Source: Psammoneis japonica (Eukaryota). From it: a DNA stretch of 64,000 nt. The notes beneath the pieces were generated by a model, which was not told the origin of the DNA, made no database searches, and saw only the letters and a program-made list of their open reading frames with translations. The translations under genes were made by a program, and so were the position numbers. Below are positions 8,308 to 64,000 of this stretch, one piece after another. The stretch is taken from NCBI GenBank assembly GCA_008632985.1, contig QPGO01000034.1, positions 62,001 to 126,000 on the forward strand, given 5' to 3'. Each line of letters begins with the position of its first letter. The stretch's first letter is position 1.

Positions 8308-8489
8308 GCTGCCGGTACGGAGCGATGAAGCAGCCGATGTGGCTTTATGCGTTGAATGTTGAGTGCCTCTTGGTTGCCGCCGGGCGGCCGGGCGGCATGG
8401 TCCGGATTTTCTTTTGAGTTTTTTGGTCGTCTCCGCGCGCTCTGCGGACGGTCGATGGACGACCAGCAGCGCAGAGCAGCTCGCAATCG

Positions 8490-11000: not shown

Positions 11001-11285
11001 TCGTGACATTTTGGCAAGTCGTACAGTGGAATTCAAGACACAGGAAACGATCGTTACGAGATTCTGCATGACTTCGGCACCAATGCTCGAACACACGGCT
11101 GTAAATCGCAATAGCCTGTCGGATTTCTTTCGCCTTTCCGTGCTTAGACTGAACAATGAACCTACCTCGCATCTTGTCTAAACTGTTGGTTAACACAAGA
11201 AGACAATACGGGGGTTTTAAAACGAGGCGACGCGGCTGTCAAAAACCCAAAACTATTACGCTGTCGTCATTTGAAGCTTCAAGGT

Positions 11286-12575
11286 CTACCTTAGAACCTC
11301 TGTTGGGGCCGCTCCCAAACCTCGGCTTGATCCCATGAGAACGTCACCAGAACCATTCCCATTTTTCCACTCGTCCGAGCTAGGAAGAATCTCCAGTCGC
11401 CCACTAGGCCAAAGACCCACGTACTGAAGCGTTTTGTCGAGATTTGAGGAAGAATCGATGGGCGCACGCGGAAAGCGGTTCAAATCAACAATACACCACT
11501 CTCGGCTTAAAATTTGTCCGGGATGATCGAACCGTGAGCACCAACCCAGTTGATAATATCTTGTAGCACGTCGTCCCCGTCAAACCTTCGTCGTATCGTC
11601 ACATCAGCAATTACCACCTGCATCAGAGCCCCACGTCCCGCAGGTGGTTCCGTCGGACATTTCGCCATGTATTGGGCTCTTTTTACAGATTCTGTTTCAC
11701 TTGAGTCACTGCTTACTTGGATCTTTTTGACTTCTTTAGCGAATTCAATTTTTTGTTTGGCTTTCTTGTACTCTTCCGTCTGGGTTACTCCTTCGAGGCC
11801 GATATTCCCAAGAACAATAATGCCGGATCCACCATGTCGTTCCAAAATAAAATGTTTACCACTTGGGTGAAAATTCATTGCGACCAAGAATCCTTCGGCT
11901 CCGGGAGCGCCTTCTAGAGTGCGCTTGTAGCCAGCCGATGTTCGATCAATCTTGCGATACCTGTCATTCGCCGGATCATCTCTGAGTCTCACAATCGCTC
12001 GCAGCAAGGTATCGACTGCCAGTGGATAAGACTTGAGTCGGTCCGCACAACGCAGAACCTGCTCTTCCTTTGCCTTATCCTCCAGTTTTGCAGGTACTTT
12101 AACTCCAGGATGATGAGAGAGACCTCCACTTGTCCGTCGTTCATTCGTTGCGTGATTGGGTTTGGGTGGAGGCGGCGTTCTTTTTCGAGAGTTGCCAGTA
12201 CCGAACTTATTGCGAGACTCTTCTGCACGTCGGGCTGCTGCATTTCCTGCCGGTTCACAGCAGCTGTCCGAGTTGGAGCTCTGCCGCCAGTCCCTACAGA
12301 CGCCTTCTTTGCCTCGCGCATTCGGCGTTCATCTTCTGCATCAAGACTCGCCTGCATTGCGCGCTGAAGATCATCGTCATGGCTTATCGGTTGCGTAGCG
12401 GCGTTCCCCGGTCGATTCGACGCTATAGTAATTCCGCCGCTCGTTGCACATCCCCGTTTGTTGTTTCGAGAGCATTGCGAGCCTGAGTCTCATCGAAACC
12501 CATCGACTGAAGCGTTCGTACTTTGTCGTCGCCACCGAGTGCTGTCGTTACTCGATCTCTAACCTTCTTGAACAT
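11286..12575 (-). CDS. UBA-UIM-PUB-UBX domain p97/CDC48 cofactor, broken by about 5 single-base indels (sequencing errors or young pseudogene)
   Basis: UBA LQSMGFDETQARNALETTNGDVQRAAELL; UIM DDDLQRAMQASL; PUB DPANDRYRKID; UBX IRRRFDGDD..TLQYVGLWPSG; frame breaks near 12425, 12251, 11835, 11797, 11514. Confidence 0.85.
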
Positions 12576-12719
12576 TTTGGATAATTATAAGCGTATTGTT
12601 CAATTACGGTTTTACACAAGTATGAGGCTCCAAAGAAGGCAGTCGGTCAACGTGGTCCTGGCTGTTGCTTCTGTTTATATTTATGGCGTGTCGACTCCAC
12701 ACTCTCCTCCTTCGGCATT

Positions 12720-15700
12720 TGCTTGTGCACTTGTGCGCTTGTGCGTTGTGTTTCTCCTTTGTGCGTGCGACGCAAGGTTCGAAGGTGGCACAGCGCGGCA
12801 CCGTCTTCGCTGTTCTTCGGGCTTCCTTGTGTTGAGGGAGTTCCGCGAGATCAAACTCGCGTAAAATCTTTCCGGTGCTACATGGCGGCACCTGAACGTG
12901 TTTTCATGGCACGTTTCCCCATCAGATTTAGGAAGACAGACCAATGTCTCTCTCCGATGACATGCCATGATGTACGGCATGCATGCAATGGCACAATGTT
13001 CGCAATCAACATCATGCATGCATGTGCACATCCACATCCGAGAGCAACAAGCACACTCTTTACCCCTGACCCTGACCCCAAAGCAAAAGCCTGTGATGGA
13101 AGTGCGCGCACAACCCAAAGTCATCTCTTGGCTGCTTTCAGGCTTTTGCAAGAGAAGGAGGAGATCAGGCTCCTCCATCTCTCCCCTCAGACGCCCCCAG
13201 CTTGCTTCTCTGGAGCTTTGGTTGTTCGGGTCTTGGCATGGCCAACCTTTTCCATCAAAATGCAGGAAAATTTTGTGCCATCTCTGGAAGATGTCACAGC
13301 CCACATCATCTTTCACAGAGGTCTTGGGTCCCTGCCTTGGAGTTGTTGCAGGGGCCTGGGCACTGGTGTCCCCCCAGCAGCAGCAGCAGCAGCAGAGCGT
13401 GCTTTTGTGGCCAGAGGTGCACACCCTCATCCTTTGGCAGGTTGTTGAGAGTGAGCTTCCTGAATCTTTTGAACAACCCAAAATGAGTGATGCACGAAAT
13501 TGACTTCTCATTGGGTGCGAGCTTTCAGCTCTGCAGTTCAGAGGGAGAGTCATTTTGTCAAAGTCACACTGACATTTTGACATCACACGGGCTTGCATCG
13601 TGTGCACTCAAGTCCACTTCTTCTCACAAAATCAGTCATTTAAAATGTCTTCAGTCAGCAGCCACATTTTCTTGACAGATTTTGCACACCAGCACCAAGC
13701 CTGTTGCAACCTTTGGCCATGGCACCTGTCCTGCAAAGCTGCACTGCAGTGGCTTTGTTCACCCTGTCTGTGCCAAGCGTTGAGCTTTGGAACATTTTTG
13801 TGAGAACAGACAGACAACATTGCAGTGAAAGATCACTGATGAATGCAGATGATGCAGAGAATTTACGTTCACAAGCAAATTCTGAGGAGCATTGGCCTTG
13901 GGCTCACTTTTTGGCTTTTGCACAGAGTCAATGCTGCAATGGCAGCAACAACATTGGGAAAATCTGTTTGCAAGCCATGCAGCAAGTTGGCAATTCAGCA
14001 TGACTTGGTGAACACCAAAAAGGCACAAATGCTGGAAAGTCAAGAGTGATCCAAAGAAAGGGCTGGAAAGTCAAGAAGAACCCATGACCCAATCAGTGCA
14101 AGCAATTGTGGCATGCAAGCTTGCTGAGCTGGTGAGAGTGGTTCATGAAACTGCTGCTCCAGTTGAAGGAGTGGCTGTCAAACAAATGATCTCTGGGGCT
14201 TTGCCAAGGGGAAGCTGCAAGGGTCTGCTGAAGGAGAGCATGGCAAAGTTGTGTTGGGCTGGGACAACATGGGCAAGGACACAGCTGAGTGCCAAAGCAT
14301 GAAAGATTAAAAGGAGTGGGTGCATGACATCATTGCTGAGTCAGGTTGACAGGCAGATGGTCCTGCAAAGACCATGAGAATGACAAGCAAGTGTGCAGAA
14401 GGGTTTTGGACCAGGGATGCAGGCACTGGCATCTCTGAGGTGGGAAAACAAACCAGAGAAGCTGGAGCATCTGGCGGTGTGACAGAATCAGAAAAGGCCC
14501 AGGCATTCTGGGGGAAACGATGCAACCTCTGAATGAAACAAGATGCAATCTCTACAAGACACAGGAGGCAAAGGTGTTCACACAATTGCGGGGCAGTGTG
14601 CAAAGGCAGTCCATCACAAAGTTGAAGCAATGATGGCATTTGCAAAGGTTGCAAAGTGCACACCTGACAGTCTGCTGTTGCACTTCCTTCTTCATGGCAA
14701 ACTTGCAAGGAGTTTTCTGATCCACACTTGTTCTCCAAGGCATGTGGGCAATGTGACCAGACCAAAGGACAACAATTTCAAGCAAATTTGAAGAGCTTTG
14801 GTGGGGCAGCCCTGTCACTTTGCACCTCAAAAATGGTCCACAGCTCTGTTGGAAGTGCCATGCTTGATGAACCAATGCTCTGACAGAGACTTCAAGTGCT
14901 GCACACCAGCAACAGCATGGCTCCTTTTTCTGTGAGCCCTTTCAACCAGCTCTCACTTCTGGCATTGAGCCAAAATTAAACAGGTGTGCACTGTCATGTG
15001 CAGCCACTGAAGATGCTTTTCAGCCACCCCCTGGGTGGGACTCCATGTGATGACATGCCCCCAGAGCTCCACATCATTTTCAAAAATGACAGTGGCCACA
15101 AGAGCACGAACAACATGGGAGCCCAGCATCAACGCGCATCTCCAGCATCTTGTGGCTCTGCATGAACCAGCTCACCCTGACAGCAGGAGTTGTTGCCATT
15201 GCAAAAAGTCATCTGTGCAAGCCAAGTTGGCCCTGACACCCCCCCTGCAAGGCACAAAAAAGGCAGGTGGCCACACCACTTTGTGCTGCCCCCATCTTCC
15301 ATCTTGCTGGCAAGCCAGCAAAAATCCTTCACTTGGTCTCTTCTGCAATTGGTGGGTTGTGTGATTTTGAGATGCTCTGATTCCATGACATTGGAACCCC
15401 CCCTTGCTTGTGAGCTCCAGGCCAAAACAACTTGCAAGCAATTTTCTTGAGCTCTCTTCGACAGCGTGCTCGCTGCAGTGCACAGCCCCGTTTGCCAAAG
15501 TTCTCACCCACCACTGCTTGGAAGTCATCTTTGTTGGCACCTTGCACCAACCTTTTAGAAAGCCAGTTCTGGCTTTGCTGCTTGACAGCACATCCAAGCC
15601 TGAGTGCAGCAGCTGTGCACGTGGGTTTCCAGCAGCTCTGCATGACTTGGTCTGTGGGTTTGCCACGTGTGTTGATATGGCCAAATCAAACAAATCAAGA

Positions 15701-15930
15701 TTTGGCTGAGCAGCTTCCTGCTGAGATGCTGCTGCAGCCTTGGTGTTCTTTGAACTGTGTCAGGCAGGAGCAGCGGTTTGCCACCACCACCATCACGCAG
15801 CTTTGACCACCAGCCCTTTGCTTTGCGCCGCTTTTCCAGCTCAACCAAGTGGCACAGCCACTCCACAGAGTGATGACATGCTTCGCCCATCATTTCTCCT
15901 TTCTCTTTTCACTGCCAAAAGAGTGTGAGA
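12720..15930. other. Hypermutated block 2 (CpG- and TpA-depleted, remnants of coding sequence)
   Basis: Same dinucleotide skew; a + strand frame 14543-15364 is interrupted only by TGA stops; normal TA/CG content returns abruptly at ~15940. Confidence 0.85.
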
Positions 15931-16521
15931 TGAAGCACTGTAAAGTGATTAGTAGGATTGAGTTACGCTCGTTTTATATATGAAATCGACACTGCAATTT
16001 ATATCTGCTGATCACCATCCGTCCGCACACTCCCCAAAAAAGAGAAGTTAGATCGAACCGCTCTAAGCTCGAGTCAGTCAGCCCATGATGAGTCGTCTTC
16101 CGGCAGCACGCTACGCAAGCGACGGCCACATATCCACAATCAACCATGATTGGAAAATCTTTGTCACCCGATGATTCCCGCCCAAAGCTTTGTCAAACGC
16201 TAATGCCAAGCACTTTTTGTCTCAAAACCGCGCTCATTTGTTTTCGAAAACACTTATCGTTTATTCGCGAACCTCAAATCAAAACACGTTGGAGGGAACG
16301 ATGGGAAACACACCGTTGCCTTCCACAACGAGATCTCTGCTTTAACGCTCTAAGCTAAAAAGTAGCGTTGGAGAAGTCGTAGAGTAAATTGAGTTCCCAA
16401 TTGGTGTGATTGTCATTGAACTTTGGTATGTACAGTAAACAAGCATAGTACTAATGAAAGCAGTGGTTGTCCAATCTGCTGCGCTCCGTAGATACATCAA
16501 TGAAAGTACCCTTGAATTACG

Positions 16522-24028: not shown

Positions 24029-27000
24029 TTATACATCGATCCCCAGTTCGACGTCATGCGTTTCGTCTCCAGCCGACGATGCTGCAGCTGCAGCAAGCGC
24101 GGAAGCTGTGGCAATGGTCTCTTCAGCATCTGCGATTGAGATATCCGCCCCGGTATCAGTACCAGGGGCCTCCCAGATAAAGCCCAACGAGTCAAGCTCG
24201 GCTACCCTCTCCGGATCAAGCTGGGAAGTCCTTCCTTCTTTCATTATCTGGTACTGATTGCGCTGCTGAGCAACCCACGAAGACAAGCGAGGATTCTCGG
24301 GGTACACCTCAGGAATATTCAAGTCTCCGTGACTATTCTTGTATTCTAGAAGCTCGCTAACTCGGGTCCTCCAAACATGGTCGGCAAACCCGCGAAGAGC
24401 CCAAACAAAGCCCAGTTCCTCAAGCTGACGGATGCGGTCTTCGCTCATCGCGGAGGACTGGGTTAGGGTGGGGTCTTGTTCTTTTGCCTTCATGAAGAGT
24501 CGGTATTGGGTTCTCTGCGTTCCGACCTTCATATTGAGAATACAACAACCAAAAACAAATTTAGCGGGGTGTAAAAAATCAGGCAGCGTATGGAAAGCCT
24601 ACAGCAATAACAGTCTTACCCAAACACCCAGCTCTGGATTCGGCGGATACCTGCAATTGAAAAAGACCAATCAAGCGAATTAGATTGATATAAGTGAAAA
24701 ATAGCAATAATTGGATTCGGCAAGTCGGCAAGTACCTCGAAGGCACCAAGCAGTCGCCGTGTTCCTCCTTGTACGCCTTGAGCTCAGCAAGTCGTTGGTT
24801 CCAACTTTCTCCCAAGCTGTCGCGGGAGCGTATGGTCCAAGTGAACCCGAGCTCGTTCAAAAGCCTGATGCGCTCCTCCGTCAAAGGGGCAGACCGTTGT
24901 TTCTTCGATTCATCCGTCGAGTTCATCAGCTTGTACTGCTGGCGTTGGGCTGACACCCAAATTCCGAGACGTCTATTGGCACTGTAGCGCGCTGGTACAT
25001 TACAATGTCCATGAACTCGCTTGTATTCGATGAGCTCGTTGTAATGCTTTTGCCAATCATCACGGAGTGACCACACGAACCCTAAGCCTTCGAGTCTGCG
25101 AATACGCTCATCGGTGAGGCGACCCACCACTGGTTTCGGGGTGGTGTTCGCCGCTTCGTCCCCCTCCTGGGTTTCGCCTTCTGGAGCAGGGCCAGTGTAA
25201 TCGATTCCCATTTTGGCTAAGTGTTTCTTCATCTTCTTATACTGCACGCGTTGTGTATCGACCTGAGAATAAAAACCAGAAAATGTAAGAGACACTGCAA
25301 CAAAACAATAGGGCAACGCATAGAGAGCATGCAGAAACAATCGTCTTACCCATGTGCCGAGCTTCTGGTCTTCTTTGCATCGCTTTGGTACAAGCACATT
25401 CCCGTGCCGTTCCCTATAATCGCACAAGCGTTGAAACATTGCATCCCACTGCTCATCGTAGCTGTTTCTTGTGATCCTACTTCGCTCGTTGCTCTTCTCC
25501 GTTTCACGCGCAGACCAAACAAATCCGGCGTCTGTAAGCTTCTTCCTTCGTTCTTCGGTCAAACGGAAGGAGGTTTCTTCCTCACCCTTAGCTTCATCGT
25601 CGCCGCCGTCCCCAGACTCGGCTGCGCTGTCCTTCTTGGTGCCAGCGAGGAACTTTCGATACTGAATACGTTGGGTATGGACCCACGTACCCAGCTGGGG
25701 CAGAATCAACAACTTAAGATCAATATATGTATGGGCATCATGTGGCAGTCTCTCCATGCCACGTCTTAACTTACCTTGGGGTCAGCTGCATGTCTCTTTG
25801 GGACCATCGTATGCCCATTTTGCTGTTTGAACTCGAGCTAAAAGAAATAAGAAATAAGATGGGCCAGACGCGATAAAGCAGACTTGTATTCGTGCGTTCG
25901 AAAGCCATTCTTACCAATCGCTCGTACATTGCATCCCATTGTCGGTCGTAGTAACGTTTCATTTTGTGTTTGACTTTCCATTCAAAACCGATAGATTCAA
26001 GTCGACGCAACCTTTCTTCGGTGAGACGCGGGTTTGTGGCTCTCGCGGACTTGGTGGCAACCTCACCACTTGTGGTGTCGCCCGCTTTGCTTTCCCCTTT
26101 CTCGTTTGCGTTCGCCCTCTGGAGTTTGGTATACTCATACCTCTGCGTCTCCACCCACTGTGTTGACGAGGACCGAAAGGGACATGTTTTTAGCTTAAGC
26201 AGCATGACTTGTTGTTCAATGTGTAGTCTACTGTAATCATGACTTACCTTGCCTAGCTTGACATCCTCCTGTGTTGACGAGGACCAAAAGGAACATGTTT
26301 TTGGCTTTAGCAGCACGACTTGTTGTTCAATGTGTAGCCTACTGAAATCGTGACTTACCTCGTAACGAGACGGAACCAAACAATCGCCATTTGTCTCTTT
26401 GTATTTTACCAGTTTATCGAACATTTCGTCCCAGTGGTCTGAAACTCTCTTGGTGCGAAGCGACCAGACAAAACCAATCTCGTCAAGCTTCGCCTTGCGC
26501 TCTTCTGAGAGTCTTTTGGTCGATTTTCCGGGTGTGATTGTCCCTGACACCTCGGATTCTGTTCCCAACAAGTCAGCTTGATCCATCGTCGGAGCAGCGA
26601 CGTGATGCTCAGTGGAAGCCGTGACTTGATCAACCACCTCCATGGTTGCAGCAACAACCTCGGCAACATCCTCTTCGGTTGCCGTCTCAGCCGGTTCGGT
26701 GCCCTTGTCGAGCTCCATCGCCCATTCTTCTGGAGTCTTGCCTTCAATTGCAGTGGTTGGGGGCAACGCGGCGGCTGCGTTCGTCACAGTTTGGCTATCA
26801 TGTCCCTTCTTGAAATCTCTATTGTTGAGAACTCTTTGGGTTTCCACCCAAGTCGACAATTTGGGATCAGGTTCGTACTTCTTAGGCACAATGCAGTGGC
26901 CGTGTTGGTCCCTGAACTGTTTCAGCCTTTCGTACATCTCATTCCACTGAACGTCATTGAGACGCTGGCGAGCGGCAGCTCGGTCCGTTGGGTTAGTAGA

Positions 27001-47822: not shown

Positions 47823-49516
47823 ATGGAAGAGCACAAGACGACGCGTCTCTTGCTTCCAAGGCATCCATGGAGAATTAGTTTGTTTTCCTTGTGTTGGGTG
47901 GCTTTTCCGGTACTTGTATCGAGTTGGATTCTAAATCAAAATCACGAGAGAATAAGCAGATCGTCGTTTTTGACAACACCGGCAGGTGCGCTATCTTTCG
48001 GGCAAGGACATGTCCACGGTTTGCTACGTGCTTCTATAAGTGGTTTAAATACTCCTCTGATTGAAGCTATTGCTGCTTCGGGAATTGATGACCAAGAGCT
48101 AGATGATGTTGTACAAGCTATTGGTGGTGTGTGTCACGAGTTTGGATACGATTGTTCTGCAGATCCTCGTTATAGAACAAGAGTACCATGCTCTCCCCAT
48201 TCCGTTAGTGGTGCCACTGGTCGCGTCATATTACTAAAGACGTCGCTGGCTGAAGACTTTATCTTTGATCTTCAATGCGCCATTTCTGAGCAGATGGACC
48301 AGCTGTTGTACTCTGATAATCCTGCGATAAAGCAACCCGTTCTGGTTTCAATTCGAAAAGACATTGGGTTGATCACAGGCGACAATTTCAATGAGGCTTT
48401 GGCGACAATCGTTGAAGAGGAAGTAAACGAATACGACATGCTCCTTCCCGTTGCAGAGGGCCGAGTGTCAGATGAACCTACCGGCATGTGCGCACCCACG
48501 TTGCACGTTGAATTGGACGGCGGGCACGTCGAGAATCCTTCAAATTCGACTACAATCTGGGACACGAGCACTTTACTCGTGTTTGACGATCTAGTTAGTG
48601 ACGACCTTCGAGCCCGACTCCTGGACATAGTCTTGGGGAAAATAAACGTGAATCCAGACTTGCCACTGTGGGACGATGCGAAAAATGGGCCAGATCCACG
48701 GAGATGGGTACGTGTTTCTGTGAATGCTGAAGCCAGCCGCCACAATACAAATTTTCTATTTGCTGCACTCAACATTGGATATGGCATTGAACTCGGTCTT
48801 GCTCTGCTTGGCCACTTTCTCAGGTACGAGGAGGGCTACTGGATATGCCTGAATCACACAACAGCGACAGCATGAAGGATGACGAGGGCGAAGGAACGTG
48901 TTGGGGACTGAAAGACGAAGGAATCGTTGACTTGTGCTTTCATCAACATGCAGCCGTTCAAGAGTTTGAGTCGATTTTGACTTTGTTGTTTCCCAATTTT
49001 GTGGTTTGCCGACTTCCGGAAGCTGTCTTTGGTTCTTCCGTGTCACCTTTGACAGCAAATGCACCGACATGCGGCGATCTCTTCAACTACCACATTGATG
49101 GCGATCCAAATCTCACTCCCCCGTCACCATGGACAGATGTTTTTGGTAGATATCCGAATCGTATGAAAGGGAAACCGCGTTTCATGAGCTGCCTAATATA
49201 TTTGAATGAGGAGTGGCACGGGGAACAATGGGGGGCTCCTACGCGGTTCTTGGACATCCCCACAAATTCTCATTACGATGTTTTGCCGCGACCCGGTCGT
49301 TGCGTCATGATGGATCAAGATATAAGTCACACCGTGGTACCACCCACAACGAGCGCTGGGAAACGCCCTCGCTACTCTTTGGTTTGGAAGCTGGTGTTGC
49401 ACCCGAAAAGGAGAGACCAGGACATGACAATCCGTGCTGGAAGCACAAGCAGGGTGTCGCATTGGCCTGAAATCACATCGTTTGGGAGTGCCACACGTGA
49501 TGAAAATCTGGGTTAA
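47823..49516 (+). CDS. 2OG-Fe(II) oxygenase (prolyl 4-hydroxylase-like), one intron (~48708-48823)
   Basis: HIDGD, MSCLIYLNEEW, GAPTRF, DQDISHTV, RYSLVWK. Confidence 0.82.
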
Positions 49517-51179: not shown

Positions 51180-51841
51180 TGCTATTTTCGATCTTCCTTC
51201 GGCGACCAACACGTACTTAGGGCCAGCTTAGGCTTACTACTTCGATCGACAGCAAGATCAGAACGCTAAAAGGCGCAGGCGGGGTCAAAAGCACCGATGT
51301 CACTGCATGCACCGACCGCCACCGTTAGTTTGAACGCGTGTGTTTCGATGATTTTTAGTCCTCCACCAACAGACACCCGCGCTTGTTAAATAGTTGCAAT
51401 TGCCCGCTTGAGGGCTATTATAGAGCAGACACACTGACACGTTAGAGTGACAGCAGATCTCACACGAACATATAAGTAAGATTACCGTTAAATAGAGCTA
51501 TCTAGACCATTGACCGCTATCATTGGGCATAAGCTAACACCACGAAAGGGCAATTGACAAGACTGATGCAAAGCACCATCAAGGTACAGTACAGTTAGTA
51601 ACGGACAGAGGAGAAAAAATATGCTTTCATACATCACTGGATTATCAATTTTGATTGCAACACGTCTAAGACAACGAGAGCAATGACGAAATGAATTACT
51701 TCATGATTTAATACATTCATTTGCTTCTGATTTCATACATGCAACCAACACTCATTGCCCGAACCTGCCACGCACGCACTCACCTTTTTCAAATTCTCTT
51801 GTTCTTCCAATGTGACATGGTGCTCAAGAGATGATGCATTG

Positions 51842-51843
51842 GA

Positions 51844-51875
<32 letters not shown>

Positions 51876-51876
51876 A
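51842..51876. repeat. (GAAA)8 microsatellite at the edge of block 3
   Basis: Directly visible. Confidence 0.95.
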
Positions 51877-53205
51877 GGGATGAATGATGGGATCAATCAA
51901 TCAATTTTCTCTTCTGGGAAGGACGGGGAAGCAAGCTGCCATTTTGCCACTGCTTTGCACACAAAAAAAGCGGCCAGTGGAGGGGGTGAGCATGTGGTGT
52001 GCACAGTGCTGCAATTGATGACCTGGTCAAAAACCTGGAATTTCAACTGAGCAACTTCTTCCTGCAGAGCTGCTGTCCCCAATTGTCCCCTCCTGTGCTG
52101 ACATTGAGTGAACTCCACCAAGCAACTCTGCACAGCAGCTTCCTCTCAGGAGCGGCCAAAAAAAACGCAAAATGATGCCAAAGAAAGTTGTCCCCACACT
52201 CAACATTTCAGCACTTTCCAAAAAACTTCTGCACACACACCCTGCATGATTGGCAAAAGAAAGAAGACAAGGGAAACAATCTGTGAGAAAAAGAGCCATG
52301 AGCCGCAACCACTTGGCTCACAGCCTGTGTGTGCGGTGCGTGGTCTTTTGTTCTCTTGTTGAGATGACATCACACACCAGGGGCACACATGAGCAGCAAA
52401 GTCCAGGGATTCCCAAGTGCAGAGCATCATCCAAGGCAAAGCTGCTGAACCAGACCAGATGAGGTGCACTCATCTTGCACTGCAGCAAACTTCTTCTGTG
52501 TGGGGCAAGCAACAACCACTCAGCTTGAACAACCCAACCCCAAAGAAGGTTTTGTTTAATGTTGGTTCACCACATCTGAAATTTGCATGCTTGCATTTTT
52601 TGGCTTTTGGCAAACATTGGATGTCACAACAATCTGCCAAAAAACATGACAAGAGTGCATGTCTCCAGCCTCAAAGGTGCACACATCATCACAAAAAGAA
52701 CAGTGTCACAGTTGCTGTTTGGCATTGTTCTCATGACACGTGGGTCAATGCTGACTTCTGCATGTGTGTCTGGTCCATGCACACAAACACTCCACACACA
52801 ATGTCAGCCACAATGCAGCACACCACTGTTGCTGCTCTGCAGCACCCTCTTTGCCTTTGCAGTTGCATGGAGCCATGTCCATTGTTTTCATTTGAAACCT
52901 GTCTCATTGTCATTGCAAGACAGCTGCAGCTCCACACAGTTGTTTTCATTGCAGACAACCCAATCTCTTTGCGTTTCATCATTTTTTGTACTTTTGTGCT
53001 GTCAATTTTGCACATTGTCATTCATGTGAGAGACACTGTGCATGTTGTTTTTTGGATGCTTTGCACATGTCATTTTTTGGTTGCTTTGCGCATGTTGTTT
53101 TTTGGTTGCTTTGATTGTTCATTCAAAATTTCTGCCAAACTCCTGTTTGCCCATTTGTTTCCAATGAGAGTTGGTGCCATCTTGAACAACAACTTGTTTG
53201 TTGAT

Positions 53206-53540
53206 TGCTGTGGTGCTTGACATTTTGCACTTGTCATCTGGAGCTGCCTTCTTAGAGGCTGCCTCTGTTCATCCATTTCAAACTTGCACAGCTGATGTTA
53301 GCCCCCTCTGTGGAGTGCATTTGTCAGACAAACACAAGCATGCAATCAATGCACTGGAGGATGCATTCCTGTTTTGATTTGTTTGCTGTGATGCTCAGTG
53401 TTTTGTGTTTGTCATCTGGAGCTGCCTCAGAGGATTCCTCCTTTTTGTCCATTTCAATTTTGCAGCAGCTGGCATTGGATCCCTCTTTGGAGTGCATTTG
53501 TCACACAAACACAAGTGCACAATTAGCGCAGCTGCAATGG
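53206..53540. repeat. Diverged tandem duplication, period ~178 bp
   Basis: tgctgtg.tgct..ttgtcatctggagctgcct..tccatttcaa..ggagtgcatttgtca.acaaacacaag starting at ~53206 and ~53384. Confidence 0.85.
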
Positions 53541-54304
53541 GCACATTCTTGGCTGCTGCAGCTGCTAAGAAAAAACCGGGACCAGTGGAGTTTTCCACAG
53601 GTGGGGGCACTCCTCAAAAAAAAACATTTTTGGCCAGCATCAAGGGTGTCTCCTCAAGTCAAGAGGCTCATCTGCTCAATGAACAAACATCATTCAAAGA
53701 AGGGCAACCCCAAAACTTGGCACAAGCAATGTCTCAAAACTGCAATTGACCCCAGGATGTCCCCACAACAAGGTCTTGTGTGGTTGAGCCAGTTGACCAC
53801 AGAAGATCCTGAAACCCAGAAGGCTGGTCTTCTGTTTCACCTTGTTCATCCCAAAAATGGCATGGACAGCTCAAATCTGTCCAATGACAAAACAACTCCA
53901 CAAGATTGTTGCCACCAGTTGGTTCAATGAAAATTTTGAGAGTGAGAGTTAACAGCAAGTTGCAAAATGTCCAGGCAACAAGAGCAACAATCTGTTGATG
54001 TTGGCACTGGTGCCACCGGGAATGTTGTTTTTGGATGCCATGAAGAACTGTCTTGCTGCTGTTGTGTTGTGCCATTTCAACAGGGGAGTCGGCATGCTTG
54101 TTGATTGCACCCATGTGAAAAACTCTTTCTTTGTCAATTGGTGGGGCACAGGTGATGATGAATGAATGATGCATTCCTTGAGCCACCCAGCTGCAGTGTT
54201 TGTTCTTTTTGATTGGACTTGTTCAAGCCACTTCTTTTGGCATGAACAACAATTGGGGCACATGTCTTCATTGTCAGAAGGAGCTGTTGTCGTGTTGCAA
54301 TTGA

Positions 54305-56780
54305 GTGTTCTTGGCGGGGTTTGAGATCATTGCAGATGCCATGTCTCAATGCCCAGACTTGAGAGCAGTCTGCAAGTGCAGCAGGGAGTGGGAGGGGCTC
54401 ATGGAAAACAAGAGAGGCAACACTCTTGCACCATGTGCAAAGGAGCTGGTTGCTCCAATGAGCTCTGGAATTGTTCTGGCGTTGCCTCACTCCACCAAAG
54501 AGTTTGTCATTTGTGCCGCTGCAACAAGCAACAATCCTGAGTTTTTGGACAAACCATTTGACAAAAAAAGCTGCACTGGGGAGAGTCATTTCTGTGCCAC
54601 CATGCTGGAAAGTTTTGAAGACAGCCAGGTCAGCATTGGTGATTTGGGTCAGCACCAACCTGATTTGTTGACCTGTGACACAAAAAGGACCACGTGGCTG
54701 CCTTTTGGCACAATCATGAAGGACAGCAATTGGAGAGTGAAAATGCTGTTGGAAAAAAAGAGCAAACATGAAAATTTGGCATTGAAGGGATTGCACATTG
54801 AGTTTGCACACGACACACCACAAAGTGCCACATTTTGGGATCAAGAGGGAATTGGCTTGAAACAAACAGCTGTCAACCCATTTAATCAGAAGGTGCTCAG
54901 AGGAAGCAGGTGGACAAAAAGCTGGATTGTGGCCCAGTTGTCAAACAAAGCAAGTTGGAGAAGTCCAACATTCATGAAAATGATGGTGGTGTTCTTCATG
55001 ATGACAAGCATCATCATGGCAGGGGCAGATCCTGATGACTTGGATGATGACACAGCAAAAGGATCAATCCTTGCATTCCCAAACTTCTTGCCAAGCAAAA
55101 TTTCTTGCAACAGGTGCCTGTTCCAGCAGCCAGGGTTGCAAAACAGTTTTCCCAGTTGGTCCACACAACCAAGAAAAGATGCTGCCATTGGCATCATTGC
55201 ATGATGCTGTGATTTTTTTGGCAGTCCAGCCATTTTGTGTTGTGTGTTCTCTTGACTGACAAGTGAGGACAGTGAAATTTTTTGCTGGAATCAGGTGCAA
55301 TCATTTGTGCATTTTTTTCCAAACCGGCACTTTGAGTTGGTGGAAGCTGTCACAAATGACAGAGCATTGTTGCAAGAGCAATTTTCTCAGACAATGCAGC
55401 CAAGAACAACTTTTCAAGATCCTGCTGGCCCACATTGCTGATTGGCACAAGACAGCTCCCCAACTGCAACAGCACTTGTTTTGCAGAAGGGTGCATCATC
55501 ATGATCTCATGTGAAAGAAGCCAAGATGGAAACAGATTGCTCTCAGATGAGTTGGGTGACAAAGACAAAGCTGCAGAAAAGTTGCTCAAGTTGCAGACAA
55601 AAGGAAGAGAAGAAGGAAAGGTCAGAGATGCATGTTGCAGTTGCCAGAAGGAGCTGTTGAAAGCTGTTGCTGCATCAACCAAGCAATGATGATGATCTTT
55701 GTGGCCTCTGGAGCTCAAGACTTGGGCCAACAGTGCCGTGATCTAACAAGAAAGGCTGGTCACTGAGCAAATGCACAATGATGATCCAGCACTGTTGAAG
55801 GTTGCAAAATTTGTGCAGATGAAGCCAAGTTCATGGGGTTGCAAGAAGAAACGCCCTTGCAACTTAGCAGGACATGTTCTGCACTTGTTTGGTTGCTTTG
55901 CTGGGCAAAACTCTGGCTGCATGTTGTTTGAAGAGTGGTCTGCCAAAAGGACCAATGCATCATGGAGGGGCTGCCCCATGGACCAGTGTGTTCAACTGAA
56001 CAAACATGCTGCAAGGAAACCCAACAAAGTCCAGGCCACAGATCAAAAAGTCATGAAAAAGATTGAGTGGAAGGCTTGTTTGATTTGCAGCACAACACAG
56101 ATTGTGGAAGTTGAGAGATGGAGTCTGGAGGAGATTGACGGTCTTCAAAAAAAAAAACACAAAAGATTGTTCATTTTGTTGGCTGCACTTTGGACAACTG
56201 CCATCAAGTCATTTGGCACAAGATTGTGCTGAGTGCAATTTCAAGATGTGGTTTCCAGATGTTTGGCAGGGGTTGAAAGGAAATGTGTTGTCACCAATGG
56301 AGATCAACTTGCTGACAAGCAGCCCACCTGCACAACTCTTGCAAACAGACAAGAAAGATGCTGCATGTTTTCATCCCTGGCCAATGTTCTTCATCATGTT
56401 GGAGACTTGGGAACAAGAGACTGCATTGCATCTCACATTTAAAACATCTGCTGAACAGATTGAAGCTGACAGCAGCTGCACATTGTTTGCAAGGAGCACA
56501 CTGCATGGCCATCAAAGGGAGCTCCCGCCAAGAAGCAATGAAGGTTTTGCAGCAGCAGTTTGGATTGAGCCATTTCCTTGGAAGCAGGTGGTGAACATTT
56601 GATGTCACAACATGCAATGCTGGCTGCACAACTGTTTGTCATCCAGCAAACAACAACTGCTGTGTTGCCTTGTGCTGTGGATGGATGTTTGACTGAAGCT
56701 GGCTTTTGGTCACCAACTGCTGCATGTCAAGGCTGCTGGGTTGGGTTGGCATCATTTGTGCCCAAGGCTGTCTGAGTTGA
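54305..56780 (+). pseudogene. Degenerate long ORF of an unidentified repeat element; C-terminus resembles a papain-like/C39-type fold
   Basis: Protein-like frames with TGA stops and shifts; CCMFSSLANVLHHVG (~56360) and CVALCCGWMFD (~56660). Confidence 0.35.
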
Positions 56781-57199
56781 TCCAGGAAGCCATCAGAAGT
56801 GCAAGGAATGCATCTCATTGCAACCCAATCAGCCAACAGGAACATTGGGATCAAACAAGAAATTGCACATGGCACCAAAGCCACAATGGTGCTGACACAG
56901 CTGCACCATCCTTGCAACTTGACTTTAACAGAAGAACCAAGCATTTTTTTTGTCTTGCAGATCACACACCCTTTCTTTCATCTTCAGAGGGGATTCCATC
57001 AAGGCGTGTTTCCTGTCACCAACTGCTTTTTCAGCACTCTCTTCTCTTAAAAAGAATTTTCAAACATTCCAGCAAATGACTGCGCTGCTTTGCCAGATTG
57101 TCATCATCCACAACCAAAGCACCAGCTCTCTGGTTTTTTGTCTTCATCACTCACTCCCACAACAGCTGCAGTTTGCATTTCTTGACATGCAGGTGATTC

Positions 57200-60100
57200 A
57201 ATGCAGCGGGCTTCAACTCCATCAACCTCTCCTTTGCCACATCCAGGCACTCTGATGGCATGGTCAAACACAACTTTCTGTGTGATCCCACTTTTCTGCA
57301 TGAGCACCTGTCAACAGTTTCTGTGTGGAATTCTGCATGAATTTTTGCCAAAAACTTGTCACCATGACAATCCCTCCACTCTGCCGCAGGCTGGCCCCAC
57401 TGGTGATCCTCAGCCAGATCCTCCACCTGACAAGGACACTGCTCCATCCACTCCAACCAGAGCTGGATCAGGAAAACCCAAAAGCTCTTTGCTCAAGGAG
57501 ATCACCATCCATTTTGAACTCACCTCCTTCAATGTTTGCATGTCCACGGCATTGGCCATGGGTCATGCTGTGATTCTCAATGCCCTCCAACAGAAAGCCT
57601 CTCATGACCCATTGATGAATGAGATGACTGTTGTGTTGAACCGGGGTTTGAAAATTCCCAAAATCAATGCAGTTGAGTGGACTTCTGGTCTCACCCACTC
57701 TCAGCACTTTGGTGTGCATTGCATTGGTGGTTCTCATCGTTGCTCCCCAATGTTTGTCATTGCTCACTGCATCCACACCTCACCAGATGTCTGGAACATC
57801 CTGTTTGTCAACAAAGTCTTAAAAGACAATGGAGTTTGTGTGCACCGCCATGAATGGGATGAGACCAGTGTTGATCTTTCTTGAGTCACCTTGCTGGTTG
57901 ATCTTGCGCCAAAGCATGGCCCAGTGGATTTAGCCCAACAATTGTTGATGGCTCTTCTTCCACCATGCACTTGCTCAAGTCACACACCTCCCTCCAGTGC
58001 CATGGACTGCACCAAATTGTCATTGAATGAACCTGTTGGCAGATTCACCTTCTCCTCCCCAAATTGCCAGACCATGCATGACCATGTGCCTTCAATGCCA
58101 ACAGATGCTCCTTTGACCAATGTGGAGGCAACTTTAATGAGTGCACCCAAGCAGCCACCAAAATTCAGGTGAGCGCAATCAGAACATCAGAGACATGCCT
58201 TGACACTGTGCAATTCCAAGTTCATCACAGCTGCACGTTGGCAGTGAAATGCTCTTTTGCACCATGGGCAACTCACTTGCTTGTCATCAAAGAATGCCTT
58301 CACTGCCCCGTACAAACTGGGTGGGACAGTGCTCACATCATGCAACTCCCTCTCCGCAAGCCACCAAACTCAACTCAAAGACCCACTGGGATGCTGGTCA
58401 ATGCAGATTTTTGACGGAAAACACGGCCATCAAGTCATGTTTGTTTCGTGTTGCCGCATTTGTTCCAACTCTTTGTCATTGGCAGGCAAGACAACCGCGT
58501 GCGCTCAGCAAGTGGCTTTGCTCTGCCAGCAAGGCCAAGTGAATCCAGACCCTCATAGAGAGCCTTTTGCTGCACCAATCTGACTTGCACTGTCGAACAA
58601 TTCTTGGATGACTCAAACCAAGAAGTCATTCTTGTTGGCAATTTCAGCTTGGATTTCTGCCACAATTCCAACACACTTGCTTCCATGGCCCAACAGTTTA
58701 ACATGTTGGATGCCATGCACCACCAACATGAAGACTTTGAATTTTCTGCTTGTGTTCAAGGTTCCAGATGCCTTGATTGTGTCCAAGCAACTCCTGGTGC
58801 TTCAGCTGCTGCAAGACTCTGCGGGTGTGAATCTTTTGGGTGCAGAACATTGTCAGATCACCAAGCTCATTACATGGATTTCAACATGGTTGCTTTGTTT
58901 GGAAACCCTTCCGTCATTCTGCCAAGATTCCAGCTCCATGATCTTCAAGCATCTTTGCCAAAACATGTGACTGTGCATGTCTCAAAGCAGTTGATCCTTT
59001 GATCACAAGTCAAAATGTCCTTGCCGGAGCAGAGGCCCTTCTTCAATCAGGGACTCCAAATCATTGTCTTGCTGACAGATTGGACCAAGACATGCTCCAG
59101 TCATTGCTGTCAGCAGCTGAGAAATGCAAATGACACAAAGAACCAGAAAGGTCTGTCAAATTGGCTGGCCAACCTCCAGAAGCAAGTGTTTGTGTCATTG
59201 AGGATGATGGCTGTGTTCCGCAACCACAAGGATGTGGTCCCCTCCATTCTCAGAGCAAAGCACAAATTGTCAACTTCGTTTCTCCTCCCTGCAATGATTC
59301 ACGAATGTTCAATGGCCCCACATTGTGCACTTGTTCGGAGTGTTGCCAAGTTGTGAAGGACAGCCAGAAGCACCAAGACACTGAACGTGATGCGCAAATT
59401 GCTGAACTAGAACTCAAAGGCACCAAAAAGTCCCAGGCTCAGGCTAAAGTTCTTTGCAATTTACACTGTGCAGAAGAAACACAGTGAGTCTTCAGAAAAA
59501 TTAATGCCTGCAAGAAGAGAGAGGGCTCCAGTGTAAAAGACCATTCAAGTCCCTGCAAACCCAAACAAAAATCAAAGACGTGCAAAACTTGAATGACAGT
59601 CAACACCCCAGAAGATGCAGCCGCAGCGCTGCAGTCCAGGAACCAGCGTCATTTTGGCCAAGCTCATGGTGCTCCACCAACAGTTCCTCCTTCATCTGTT
59701 GACCTGGGTTGCAAAGGCAATGCCACAATGGCAGAGCTCATCTTAGATGGCGAACATGAGACTGGTCAGCTGAAACTTGCTGCTTCTTTGCTCATCCAGC
59801 ATCTTCAGAGACATGCCCCACCTGCAGTGCGGAACCATGTCTCATCTGACATCTTGCTCTCCAAACCAAAGACATGGTTCGAATCTGCCTCCACATCTCT
59901 GAAGTCAGGATTGCACCTTGGACATTGGAAAGTGCTGTGTGCTCCTCATTCTCATGCCAAAGATCTGGACTCCCAAGGCAATCCATCCTCAAAGAAAGAA
60001 CATCTGGATCAAGTTCAGCAGACACTGTTTGCAATTTGCCTCAACCTCATCAACTGGGCTTTGAAGTGGGGCTGTTTGTGTGACCATTGGAAAGACATTG

Positions 60101-63100
60101 CAAACACAGTGTGATGTTCAAGAAACCAGGCAATGACAAAATCCACCGACTGCAAGTCACGCACATGTGCAAAGCAGATTTTCAAATTGTCACAGTGTCA
60201 AATGGCAAGAATTGGCTCAGCACATGGAGAACCACCAAGTGTGTGATCCTGGCACACATGGATGCCATTGCTTCTTGTCTGCTCAGACTCCAGTGTTTCT
60301 TGAGAACCTGATGTTGGAAATGTCCCAAGCCTCTTGCAAAACTCTGCTGATGAGTGATGATGATTGCACCTCCTGTTGTGATCGAAATGTTCCTGCAATT
60401 GTTGGACCATGTTCCCAAAGTGATGGAATGGACTTTTGTGTGGTTGAAGTGAACATGTCTGCCCTGCACCATGCTGGACACTGGCTTTGGACCTTGTTGG
60501 GACTGGCTCAGTGGAGTCATGCTCACACTGCTGCACAACCCCTTTGCAGCACAGGTCAAGGCAGCAGGAATTCCCCATGGCATTGGAACACCCCACACAG
60601 CTGCCTGTTTGACATCTTTGATGCAAGAGCCATGGGATCACACTTTGAAACTCCAGACAGCAAGTTCTTTGTCCAAGTTTACAATTGGGGACATGTCAAC
60701 AACACGTCCAAACAGGTCAACAACTTTTGAGCAAGTCCGCAACCGTCTGCGCTTGACTTGTCCTTTTCTCTCCAACAGGATGATCAACTTTGGTGTGATT
60801 TGCTGGCTGGACACTGCAGGACACAAACTTGAGTTGCCAAAGTGTTCCTTTCACGCAGTTGAATGGGACTTTGCTGAGTGCGGCAAGTCTCACATCCGCC
60901 CACACCATGACAACCCAGATGTTCAAATCTTCTCAGCAGACTGGTCCACGTCTTGGTCCAGCAAACAAATTTCAGCACATGCTCTGCACAAAATGCTCTG
61001 ACATTACGTTGCACCAATCAGCACCAGAAAGACTCAGTTTCAGAAACTTCTCACCAAGAGCAACACCACAGCTCCATTCCTCTGATCTTGTCCCTTTGAC
61101 CAGATTGAAACATGGCAGTGCTTTCACGTGTGCCACTTGTCTTTGATGACTCATGTCCAGCCAAACTCAACTTTCTACCTGAGGAGCTCTTGACTGTTCA
61201 ACAAAAAACAATGCGGGCTACATTTGCCAAATGCGGGTGCAACAGAAATGTGAAAAGACTCGTCCCATGTGGTCCTCAATCCCTTGGCAGCAAAGGACTC
61301 CAATTGTTGGACATGGAACAATGTGTCACTCAATTGCAACTCTTGTTGAAACACTCACAAGGTGCAACAACAAACCTCAAGTTGGGAGAAGATCAACCTT
61401 GCAAAAACTTGCACATCACGGTTTCCTGGATCCAGCTGAACACAGGAATGGGAGTGAGTTTTTTGTGGGACATTGATGCAGCACTGCCGCATGTGGAATC
61501 TTGTTGGTTTGCTTCAGTCCAGTCATTCTCACACAGGATTCAAGGAAGAATTTACTTGACACAGTCCAGCATGCTCCCTCTCCAATGTGATGACAATCAG
61601 GGCATCATGGACGTGGTCCTCCAATCTCAACTCTTTTCTCATTGTGAAATCAGATGGACAAACTGCTGTTGCTCATGCTTGCAGGTGCTGTCCATGTCCA
61701 ACATTGCTCTGTCCAATGGTTTGACATTGGACACAATGAAGGCAGCTGGTGACCCTTGCTTCAGAGCAGTGTCAGCACTTTGAACATGTTGAGCAGTGTG
61801 AACCAGGATTGAGAGTGTGGGCCACATGGAAGAAGTTTTGTGTGTCCCTGTGCCATCCAAAATCACAGACACTGAAAGAACCTCTCAGAAATTGGTTGGC
61901 ACCACCATCCACCAGGATGCGCATGCAAGCAACCATGCATTTTTCTCCCTTGGAGGATCATTTGTGCACCAGGTCTTCCTCTGGGTGCAACACATTTTGA
62001 GTGAATGGAACCAGAACAGACACACCATCACAGAACTGGAAACAGTGCCGGTCCCATCCAAAGAATCATTTCCGGCAGAACTTTCCATGACAGACGACAG
62101 TCGATGGACACTCAATCTCCCATGTGCTGACTTGTCTGATCCACTGATTTCTCGGCTTCCTGATGCATTCCAAGACATGCTGCAATCCTTGCCACAATGG
62201 GAGTCAACGTTGTTCAAAGACCTCAAGTTTCATGTGCCCCTTAAAATGCTGCTGGTTCAATGCTTTTTGTCCTCGACATTGACTGCAGGGAGTGATGGGT
62301 CTGCAAATGAAGGTGCCACCTTTGGTTGGACGATTGCATTGGCAGAACCCCTGCTGGTAGATTGTGCCGGACCAGTTTTTGGAAGACAGCCGTTGTCTCA
62401 CTGACCAGAAGCATGTGGAATTCTCTCTGTTTGCCACTTCATTTACAGATTCATGGAACACTGCCACATGAGAGAGTTTCCGGATTTGGACGTGCATTGC
62501 AACAACAAGGCGGTGGTGTCTTGCTTGGAACAGATTGCTCTTAACCTGTCGGCTCCATCTCCTGGAGACCAACTCAATGGCATCTGAGATTTTCACATCT
62601 GACACAATGGAGCCAATGCCCTTGCCTCCAACTGGGACATCATGAACAAGAGATTGCACTTTTGCATGGCAATGGAGGAATCCCACAAATCCAATGCATC
62701 CCCATTTCCTCCACAGGCAAAGTGGGTCAAAGGACATCAAGATTGACATGCCCCGGTTCACACACTTTCACTCAACGCAAGAGCAAACACATGAGCAGAC
62801 CAGACAGCCGGCACCTGCCAAGGACATTGCAGTCAAGATGCTTCAATGGTTCTGCCCTCCCTCACTGCCACTTGCATTTGAGTTTGCAGGATGGCACATT
62901 GACATCAGGCTACAAACAGCAAGTCAGGCATGCTGCCACCGCTCCGCAACTTTTGGAGTGCATTCTCAATTCTCAAGTGCAGTCAGTGGCATCCAGAAGT
63001 GATCAACCTGACAGATTGCTTGGGATGCTCATGCCATTCTAACAAAAAGGCATTCCAAGCAACACATTGAAACAGCTGAGCTTGTTCACAACCTTCTTCC

Positions 63101-63850
63101 TGCCAACGAGATGGTCAACAGATGCAATTCCATCCAACCTCACCATTGCATTCTCTGTGAGCATCTGATGGAGGACAGGGATCATGCACTGTGGTGTCTG
63201 CACAATGAACCCTGGCACAGAAAATTTTTGCAAGGATTGCAGCATTGTTGCAACCAGATCAACACGATGCCAACGCGGCATGATTTCTCATTGGGTTCCA
63301 TTCAAGCATGGTTTGACAGTGAGATGGTGCGCCCAGACGATTTAGACTGCCACTGCAGAGCCCTGTGGCATGCTCAATCAGATGTGGGATGGCAGCAAGT
63401 GTTTGGTGGAAGGCACTCCACTCTTTGGAATGTGGTCCAGTTGGGGTGTTTGTGTGATTCAGGCATTCTTCATCAGCACCAAGAAGAGAACAAACAGCCC
63501 CTGAATTGGACCATTCAGATGCGTTTGTTCACATGGAAACAGTGGTGGAGTCTGTGGGAAGAGCATGACCATCATGTGCATGGACACAGTGCAGATTTGA
63601 GGACATTGTCTCAGAGATGAAAGGTTGAGGCCAAATTGACAGCTGCACACAACAAATGCCAAGAATGCCTGGCCAAAGATTGAGGTGTCCTGCTTGATTC
63701 TGTGGAAGATCATGAACATTTCACAACAACGCACACACAAAATTGGATCTCAATGGTCCAACCCAGACTGAAAGAAAGTCTCAAAGAAGCCAAAAAAGCT
63801 GGTGCTTTGCAGCACTTGCACCATCACCAGTTGCTTCCATCAGGCATCTC
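57200..63850 (+). mobile_element. Decayed non-LTR retrotransposon (Ambal-like LINE): partial ORF1 (~57330-57900), ORF2 with APE endonuclease (~58170-58910), RT (~59900-60900), RNase H (~62280-62750) and CCHC finger (~63145-63200)
   Basis: APE: DPLGCWS, TTACAQQ, VILVGNF, GSRCLDC, LSDHQ. RT: SGLHLGHWK, KKPGNDKIHRLQVTHMCKADF, SCCDR, TGQGSRNSP, GHVNN, LELPKC. RNase H: GSDGS..TFGW, WVKGHQD. Finger: CILC..EDRDHALWC; QSDVGW. Confidence 0.9.
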
Positions 63851-64000
63851 CTCAAGGAGATGCTGACTCAAGCCAATTGCATTTGCTTCTGCCGCACCCC
63901 TGGCAGGGTGTGCTGGAGGTGTGGGTCAGCTGGTGCCAGTGTTGCTGGGCAAAGGTGCAGCAGCACTTTAAATTGGGTTTGGGCTTTTTTCTGTGTGATC

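Follow-up and report, generated by a model that had tools for sequence, protein, structure and literature searches.

TpA-directed hypermutation of foreign DNA is known from one 2026 preprint and one chlorarachniophyte. Mettrop et al. (bioRxiv 10.64898/2026.01.13.699255) describe TpA-targeted hypermutation of integrated nucleocytoplasmic large DNA virus (NCLDV) and virophage DNA in Bigelowiella natans. According to the main text of that preprint, 231 of the 302 nuclear mutations found in mutation-accumulation lines lie in the integrated giant virus and virophage, and 230 of these 231 are A→G or T→C changes, all on TpA; cultures of the present day show a de novo rate that is higher by orders of magnitude. 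The NCLDV region is reported there to be transcriptionally silent, low-TpA coding sequences of the alga are enriched for reverse transcriptase and endonuclease-reverse transcriptase domains, and an adenine deaminase is proposed by the authors. Here, a stretch of 64,000 nucleotides from the diatom Psammoneis japonica is described (assembly GCA_008632985.1, contig QPGO01000034.1, positions 62,001 to 126,000; the whole stretch is called the window below, and positions are counted from its first letter). Three sharply bounded blocks of this window, one of them with a degenerate long interspersed nuclear element (LINE), are nearly devoid of TA and poor in CG. An initial annotation of the window had stated that no described genome-defence system has this signature. 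This is overturned by the B. natans preprint, and the window is best filed as a new, saturated diatom instance of a barely described TpA hypermutation.

The two cases are alike in that A/T→G/C transitions occur only at TpA, giving TpG or CpA depending on the strand, and in that these are confined to discrete foreign or mobile DNA. They differ in the host, which is a rhizarian alga in one case and a diatom in the other, and in the kind of evidence, as rates were measured in the B. natans lines whereas the window shows the end state only. The B. natans regions are still TA-rich (Rho 0.45 in the main text), while the window blocks are near saturation (0.02-0.08). Furthermore, the main text on B. 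natans mentions neither a CpG component nor a 3'-neighbour preference nor diatoms, whereas the window has both CpG decay and a motif. A literature search, with most subscription journals outside its coverage, returned no report of TpA loss in diatoms or of its coupling with CpG decay.

Other described systems match parts of the signature. Fungal repeat-induced point mutation (RIP), dependent on a RID/DNMT4-type enzyme, converts CpA to TpA and hence creates TA. RIP is likewise a transition hypermutation that permanently inactivates repeats within sharp domain edges, and the two processes are alike in their logic, the mutational silencing of mobile DNA, but the window destroys TA and makes CA and TG, the opposite of what RIP does. 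An assignment to RIP fails, with TA falling from 37.9 per kb in normal DNA to 3.3 per kb in the blocks and CA and TG going up, and the direction opposite to RIP that the initial annotation had claimed is thus the direction found. Decay by deamination of 5-methylcytosine resembles the second half of the signature, in that CG becomes TG or CA on both strands and the change is confined to transposable-element DNA, but it leaves the TA loss unexplained. In basidiomycetes, Horns et al. in 2012 reportedly found a TCG-biased hypermutation of transposons. That process shares with the window C→T changes in CpG context, a 5' T preference and a location in repeats; it differs in being fungal and in having no TpA component. 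Diatom transposons are described as CpG-methylated through DNMT5a, and diatoms as carrying DNMT4 enzymes related to RID, for which that account gives no assigned function (PMC9998398).

The depleted DNA in the window consists of block A (8350-11000, with edges at about 8350-8520 and 10900-11000), block B (12975-15940, edges at about 12975-13040 and 15680-15940) and block C (51740-64000), to none of which a strand applies. The left edge of block C lies at 51740-51780 for TA and CG alike, and the block continues past the end of the window. Over the three blocks (about 8.4-11.0, 13.0-15.8 and 51.75-64.0 kb) the observed/expected ratio (o/e) is 0.02-0.12 for TA and 0.10-0.25 for CG, with CA and TG raised to about 1.6-1.9; for 52001-64000 the values are 0.02-0.08 for TA, 0.10-0.25 for CG, 1.6-1.9 for CA and 1.8-1.9 for TG. 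In the rest of the window TA stands at 0.48-0.73 and CG at 0.80-1.2. Counted in bins of 500 bp, a bin within the blocks contains 0-3 TA and 1-12 CG, and an ordinary bin 6-39 TA (mostly 11-27) and 17-51 CG (mostly 20-40). The 17.35 kb of block DNA retain 57 TA altogether, whereas the density in the flanks predicts about 657. The depletion is real and confirmed: the initial annotation had reported TA and CG nearly absent from 51740 onwards with normal flanking genes, and both the composition and the starting point are upheld, the edge being found at 51.74-51.78 kb. Blocks A and B carry the same signature and had gone unmentioned.

The losses and gains balance. Relative to normal DNA the blocks have lost 34.6 TA and 49.3 CG per kb, 83.9 in sum, and have gained 84.9 CA and TG per kb, which is therefore the near-exact balance that turning TA and CG into CA and TG would leave. 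All other dinucleotides are near normal. GC content is 0.46-0.49 in and out of the blocks, and the slight fall from 0.487 to 0.475 within them is what the conversion predicts. At all five visible edges TA and CG depletion start or stop together, within about 50-250 bp. The three blocks are not copies of one sequence as far as blastn of the window against itself can tell, since it returned no similarity among them. In DNA of this kind the stop codons TAA and TAG are impossible, and long stop-free runs were seen in all six frames of blocks A, B and C; 15 open reading frames (ORFs) of at least 150 amino acids were counted in 12 kb, and gene callers will over-predict in such TA-free DNA.

A neutral mutation bias acting genome-wide, and visible wherever selection is absent, could in principle give a similar picture, as selection on genes could mask it elsewhere. 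It is contradicted within the window itself. The 18 segments outside ORFs in the normal regions (8.5 kb) have a TA o/e of 0.68 and a CG o/e of 1.08, and a 473-bp spacer adjoining block C has 0.90 and 1.04. Moreover, the DNA that separates blocks A and B (11000-12975, minus strand) is normal in composition; it encodes a host protein with UBA and PUB domains and has been spared. Such a bias is thus a highly improbable explanation. As a separate observation, the depletion halts within about 100 bp of the UBA/PUB gene on either side.

Block C contains a degenerate non-LTR (long terminal repeat) retrotransposon of the LINE type at 58257-63797 on the plus strand. By tblastn it is colinear with residues 110-1890 of P0128, a homologue of 1951 amino acids with APE, reverse transcriptase (RT) and RNase H regions, and the LINE that the initial annotation had seen here is thereby upheld. 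As a dead copy it shows six or more frame changes, four in-frame TGA stops at conserved columns (59590, 60999, 62402 and 63681), and HVNN in place of the catalytic FVDD. The core of the RT survives as an ORF of 187 amino acids (60167-60727, plus strand) with 381 homologues at E<=0.001, of which the best has an E-value of 8.4e-27 at 38% identity and many are polyproteins of 1900-2100 amino acids. It was only through an exhaustive homologue search with this frame that the LINE could be recognised. Pfam, applied to six frames of all three blocks with stops read as X, gave no match, the LINE copy included, while intact homologues match Exo_endo_phos (2e-12), RVT_1 weakly and below cut-off, and RVT_3 weakly. 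The individual motif readings of the initial annotation were all reproduced against the homologues, with Y→C at 58778, 60377, 60545, 61238 and 62414, G→S at 60548, D→N at 60698 and 60701, and R→stop at 62402. One of its consensus forms needs correction, as the family has F at 60692 and the catalytic motif is therefore FVDD rather than YVDD.

The direction of the changes was read by comparing the LINE with 150 homologues at 403 codon columns, each with at least 15 homologues aligned and at least 60% of them agreeing. Tyrosine codons are TAY, TGY encodes Cys and CAY encodes His, while CGN can become CAN or TGN. Not one of 19 conserved Tyr columns has kept Tyr in the window, which has Cys at 10, His at 4, Phe at 3 and Trp at 2. 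Conserved Arg is kept at 5 of 23 columns and is otherwise mostly replaced by Gln (7), His (5), Cys (4) or a stop (2). Given these codons, the losses are the products expected of TA→TG/CA and CG→TG/CA, and since Y→C and Y→H are both found in one element, both strands have been hit. The product residues of the two conversions are themselves stable, with His kept at 13 of 13 conserved columns, Cys at 9 of 9, Gln at 14 of 15 and Trp at 18 of 20.

The base preceding the change is equally telling. D→N changes are preceded by C in 6 of 6 cases and T→A changes by T in 5 of 5, with N→D and K→E behaving likewise, and the three L→S changes are each TCA, as expected from TTA. A first-position A has become G in 10 cases and was kept in one where T precedes it, compared with one change and 34 kept after any other base (Fisher p 3e-8). 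For a first-position G the corresponding figures are 9 changed to A and 6 kept after C, and 1 changed and 74 kept after other bases (Fisher p 7e-8). The initial annotation had inferred a TpA-specific A:T→G:C process, working on both strands on top of CpG decay, and the comparison with homologues bears this out in direction and in context. The equal A→G rate inside and outside TA that it had named as a counter-possibility is not what is seen (10 of 11 against 1 of 35). Among 133 conserved columns at which the window differs, 59 are explained by TA or CG becoming CA or TG (29 by TA alone, 30 by CG alone), and three control sets of dinucleotides explain 10-17 of the same 133; the remaining 74 are ordinary divergence from distant relatives. 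It is worth noting that the conserved columns hold a hint of strand asymmetry, with 10 Y→C and 4 Y→H, and with 12 R→Q/H and 6 R→C/stop, which is not significant. Sense-strand purine changes are in this way about twice as common at these columns of the LINE, a difference that is not significant by itself.

The same comparison bears on whether the element might have been TA-poor and CG-poor from the start. Many RNA viruses and retroelements are reported to under-represent CpG and UpA, so that avoidance of the viral kind could be imagined as its native composition, but for the LINE this candidate is ruled out. Coding sequence free of TA cannot encode Tyr, and the homologues have 3-5% Tyr, at columns where the window has Cys or His; 146 of the 150 contain at least 1%, with a mode of 3.5-5%. 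Catalytic residues have been destroyed as well, and a native origin retains next to no probability. In a set of 80 related metagenome LINE loci (500 kb), TA o/e is 0.39-0.85 and CG o/e 0.40-1.12, the lowest TA value of any 1-kb piece being 0.35. These loci were found with peptide patterns, a search that is biased to intact copies; the set shows that the family is not natively TA-poor, and it does not speak to how rare the process is. Thus the natively TA-poor family members that the initial annotation had considered were absent from the set, all 80 loci lying at a TA o/e of 0.39-0.85.

The TA sites that survive are not a random sample. Of the ATAN sites 1 is left where about 300 are expected, while TTAA nearly escapes, with 18 left against 25.7 expected. 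Survival was modelled with each strand hit independently at 5'-T-A-N and the effects multiplied, over ten symmetric classes. This per-strand model fits (chi2 4.0, df 6, p 0.67) with values of rate times time of 4.7 for TAT, 1.77 for TAC, 1.14 for TAG and 0.21 for TAA, whereas uniform loss of TA is rejected (p 5e-30); the order TAT >> TAC > TAG >> TAA is unchanged against a baseline of intact relatives. At TCG the loss of CG runs about twice as fast, with a survival of 0.08 compared with 0.16-0.20, but the same kind of per-strand multiplicative model fits the CG loss poorly (p 0.004). The neighbour dependence at TA resembles the substrate preference of an enzyme, as far as can be read from base sequence, in which A as target is not separable from the T paired with it.

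For this reason an origin of the TpA step on thymine has to be weighed. Here too the hypermutation would be targeted, but a modified T at A-T-A would mispair with G or be misrepaired, giving T→C; an example would be a base of the 5-hydroxymethyluracil type made by a dioxygenase. A→G on one strand and T→C on the other are the same event in sequence, and TAT is ATA on the opposite strand. The 5-hydroxymethyluracil of dinoflagellates is reported to favour TpA. The only experimental precedent for such hypermutation is, however, read as adenine deamination in the main text of its authors, itself a proposal (10.64898/2026.01.13.699255), and a thymine route is considered unlikely.

The repeat status of block C was followed in contigs from a public sequencing run (X1), in which word depth is 61-77 in unique sequence and uniform over ordinary and depleted parts. 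Over 52.7-63.3 kb the summed depth of contigs that are at least 80% alike is 140-600, and over the last 650 bp (63344-64000) it reaches 2513, with 50-62 contigs at 63938-63960. Such a rise toward the 3' end of the LINE is the pattern that 5'-truncated LINE copies produce. Altogether 630 contigs were matched, 339 of them less than 90% alike, and many copies are 80-95% alike. The description of the mutated DNA as repeat-restricted, made in the initial annotation, is therefore shown only for about 52.7-64 kb, which is multi-copy; the piece at 51.8-52.7 kb is fully depleted and yet has a summed depth of 57-74, which makes it look single-copy at a likeness of 80% or more. The latter piece may be a very old repeat.

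These contigs also speak to two further explanations. In the first, base calling or sequencing of heavily modified DNA would have produced an artefact, and it is true that the platform is unrecorded both for the assembly and for run X1, which possibly comes from the same sample. However, the X1 contigs were built from k-mers at a depth of 61-77 and match pieces of 1.1-1.8 kb of block C with 0-7 differences, and raw error-prone long reads could not yield kilobase-long matches as exact as these. Mixed miscalls on both strands of a palindromic step would presumably create TA and CG rather than remove them, and divergence among the copies has brought them down to 80-95% likeness and includes frameshifts. 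An artefact is accordingly very unlikely. In the second, editing of the ADAR or APOBEC kind would have hit the RNA or cDNA of the element ahead of integration, and the copy would have been inserted already mutated. The best-characterised part of the depleted DNA is indeed a LINE, ADARs and APOBEC3 do disable mobile elements through clustered transitions made by deamination, and a U on the 5' side of the edited A is favoured by ADARs (cited in the main text of 10.64898/2026.01.13.699255). But the substrates of these enzymes are RNA or single-stranded cDNA, and one strand bears their mark, whereas in the window Y→C (10) and Y→H (4) are found together in one element, the depletion extends without a gap over 6.4 kb upstream of the LINE, two blocks with no LINE similarity are hit as well, and the loss is near saturation. 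The 3' T preference seen here also differs from the 3' G preferred by ADARs. In addition, the copies differ from each other at CG/TG/CA and TA/TG/CA sites: among the 40 differences listed out of 1747, 14 are CG against TG or CA, in either direction, and 3 within the block are TA against TG or CA. Editing before integration thus has only a slim chance of being the explanation.

There are some signs bearing on the present state of block C. Within the block, unique contigs of X1 disagree with the window at 16 of 6970 bp, and outside it at 1 of 3833 bp (Fisher p 0.009), an excess that could reflect ongoing mutation or, equally, assembly noise in repeats. In another run, X2, which contains a spliced contig and looks RNA-like, contigs cover the genes at 46-50.7 kb and nothing real in 51.8-64 kb, and because contigs cannot prove absence this is weak evidence that block C is silent. 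Run X3 yielded no contig that matched.

Taken together, the preferred reading, with a probability of roughly 0.6, is that silent mobile DNA of a diatom nuclear genome, including at least one repeated LINE, has been brought near saturation in place by two context-specific transition processes that act on both strands and within the same sharp domains. The direction of change, its context specificity, its action on both strands, its confinement to domains, the trinucleotide order and the multi-copy state of 52.7-64 kb are shown by the data, and behind the mutations we infer methylation, a deaminase, a link to silencing and a function in defence. The step from CpG to TpG or CpA, about twice as fast at TCG, would most simply be deamination of 5-methylcytosine at methylated transposon CpGs. 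The step from TpA to TpG or CpA would correspond, on one strand, to A→G in 5'-T-A-N with N = T >> C > G >> A, and its most likely chemistry would be an enzymatic conversion of adenine to inosine, which is copied as G. The adenine deaminase would be recruited to the silenced chromatin in which CpG decay acts. The outcome is irreversible inactivation, as in the LINE with its conserved Tyr all gone and most conserved Arg and the catalytic aspartates lost.

An alternative replaces the two processes by one chromatin-targeted deaminase with activity on both A and C and a preference for 5' T, acting at T-A-Y and T-C-G, so that CpG methylation would not be the cause of the CpG loss. This would account for the common boundaries of the TA and CG depletions and for the 5' T that both losses favour, with TCG lost about twice as fast as VCG, and the main text of the B. 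natans preprint cites ADAT2 enzymes with deaminase activity on A as well as C in DNA (10.64898/2026.01.13.699255). That main text makes no mention of CpG, and the C→T changes in the window occur only at CpG, which is the context described for methylation of diatom transposons (PMC9998398). Other loci show the two signatures separately. Three RT ORFs from public metagenomes (P0240, P0245 and P0271) have conserved Tyr turned into Cys or His but have kept Arg and FVDD, and one of them, P0271, is an open frame of 886 amino acids with a single Tyr; judged by their translations, these look like a TpA-only signature in other organisms. Conversely, the metagenome loci L028 and L062 have a CG o/e of 0.40-0.47 with ordinary TA. 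As the TpA and CpG signatures occur apart elsewhere, two processes are more likely than one enzyme, and a single dual deaminase is rated as a rather improbable account.

Several points weigh against the reading of two processes acting in place on silent mobile DNA. Both enzymatic steps are deduced from base sequence. The LINE is old, with at least six frameshifts and many unrelated substitutions, and a slow, targeted long-term bias cannot be told from bursts of mutation in such a copy. No sign was seen of the strand-processive tracts that are typical of known deaminase hypermutation: CA and TG outcomes are not clustered along the sequence (runs test z -1.3 to +1.2), with a dispersion of 1.88 compared with 1.40 in normal DNA. 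The trigger may be chromatin state, or spreading from a target, rather than repetition, given the single-copy-like piece at the left of block C. Decay of each copy after insertion is illustrated rather than quantified by the 40 differences of 1747. Finally, X1, with its platform unrecorded, possibly derives from the assembly's own sample and so is maybe not independent of it.

If the TpA step is enzymatic, there are candidates for it. In their natural tRNA targets, TadA and ADAT act on an A that follows a U. ADAT2/TadA-like proteins may be considered, as they are in the main text of the B. natans preprint (10.64898/2026.01.13.699255), and so may the stramenopile-specific proteins in which a deaminase is described as combined with SAM and tudor domains (PMC3239186). 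For the CpG step, the RID-related DNMT4 of diatoms would be a candidate (PMC9998398). A more far-reaching version, which is tentative and on balance doubtful, would see in the window a diatom defence that is RIP-like and chemically opposite to RIP. A chromatin-guided deaminase would erase TpA (TAT > TAC > TAG >> TAA), and perhaps CpG, from mobile DNA under silencing; such a system would be a homologue of that in Bigelowiella and hence an ancient mutational immunity of the stramenopile-alveolate-rhizarian (SAR) group, and its enzyme would be a natural adenine editor of double-stranded DNA.

The ordinary regions of the window contain eukaryotic genes in long exons. Their products include a SWIRM protein, Dcc1, WD40 proteins, an HMG-box protein, a Nup133-like nucleoporin of 1410 amino acids and two proteins with helicase-associated (HA) domains. 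Two adjoining genes built of HA domain repeats lie at 24579-26937 on the minus strand, and within them there is a direct repeat of 92 bp, 91% identical, at 26158-26249 and 26269-26360. For a coronin gene the closest named relatives are those of diatoms (Helicotheca 71%, Cyclotella, Phaeodactylum 63%), and its top match is 84% identical, which makes the host a diatom rather than the chlorarachniophyte of the preprint. A contig of run X2 joins 48706 to 48823 and omits 116 bases, which are probably an intron of the gene at about 47823-48875. At 48068, also in an ordinary gene region, X1 and X2 both have C where the window has T, a TA to CA difference that may come from strain variation or from an error in the assembly. 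Within block C, a (GAAA)n microsatellite lies just inside the left edge (51834-51890, plus strand), where X1 contigs break, and a tandem pair of about 140 bp, 78% identical, is found at 53201-53515, with several length variants in X1 at about 53248-53252. A stop-free frame at 54305-55201 (plus strand) has a weak language-model likeness to the RNase H of LTR retroelements (score 0.82, Protein Atlas), which can serve as a lead only.

To what was known of TpA hypermutation, the window adds a co-extensive CpG decay, a LINE as victim and a quantitative motif, TAT >> TAC > TAG >> TAA. Since TpA and CpG decay have common boundaries, the TpA process would be tied to the silencing domain. The strength of 5'-TAT over TAC, TAG and TAA, together with the near immunity of TTAA, defines the substrate motif that any candidate enzyme must reproduce, and a natural enzyme that turns A into G within a defined context of double-stranded DNA would be of interest to base editing. 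In practical terms, DNA that is free of TA, and with it of TAA and TAG stops, fills with spurious ORFs and would bias repeat annotation and gene calling. For the algae themselves, the end state seen in this diatom suggests that the process is spread over distant algal lineages and shapes their repeat landscapes.

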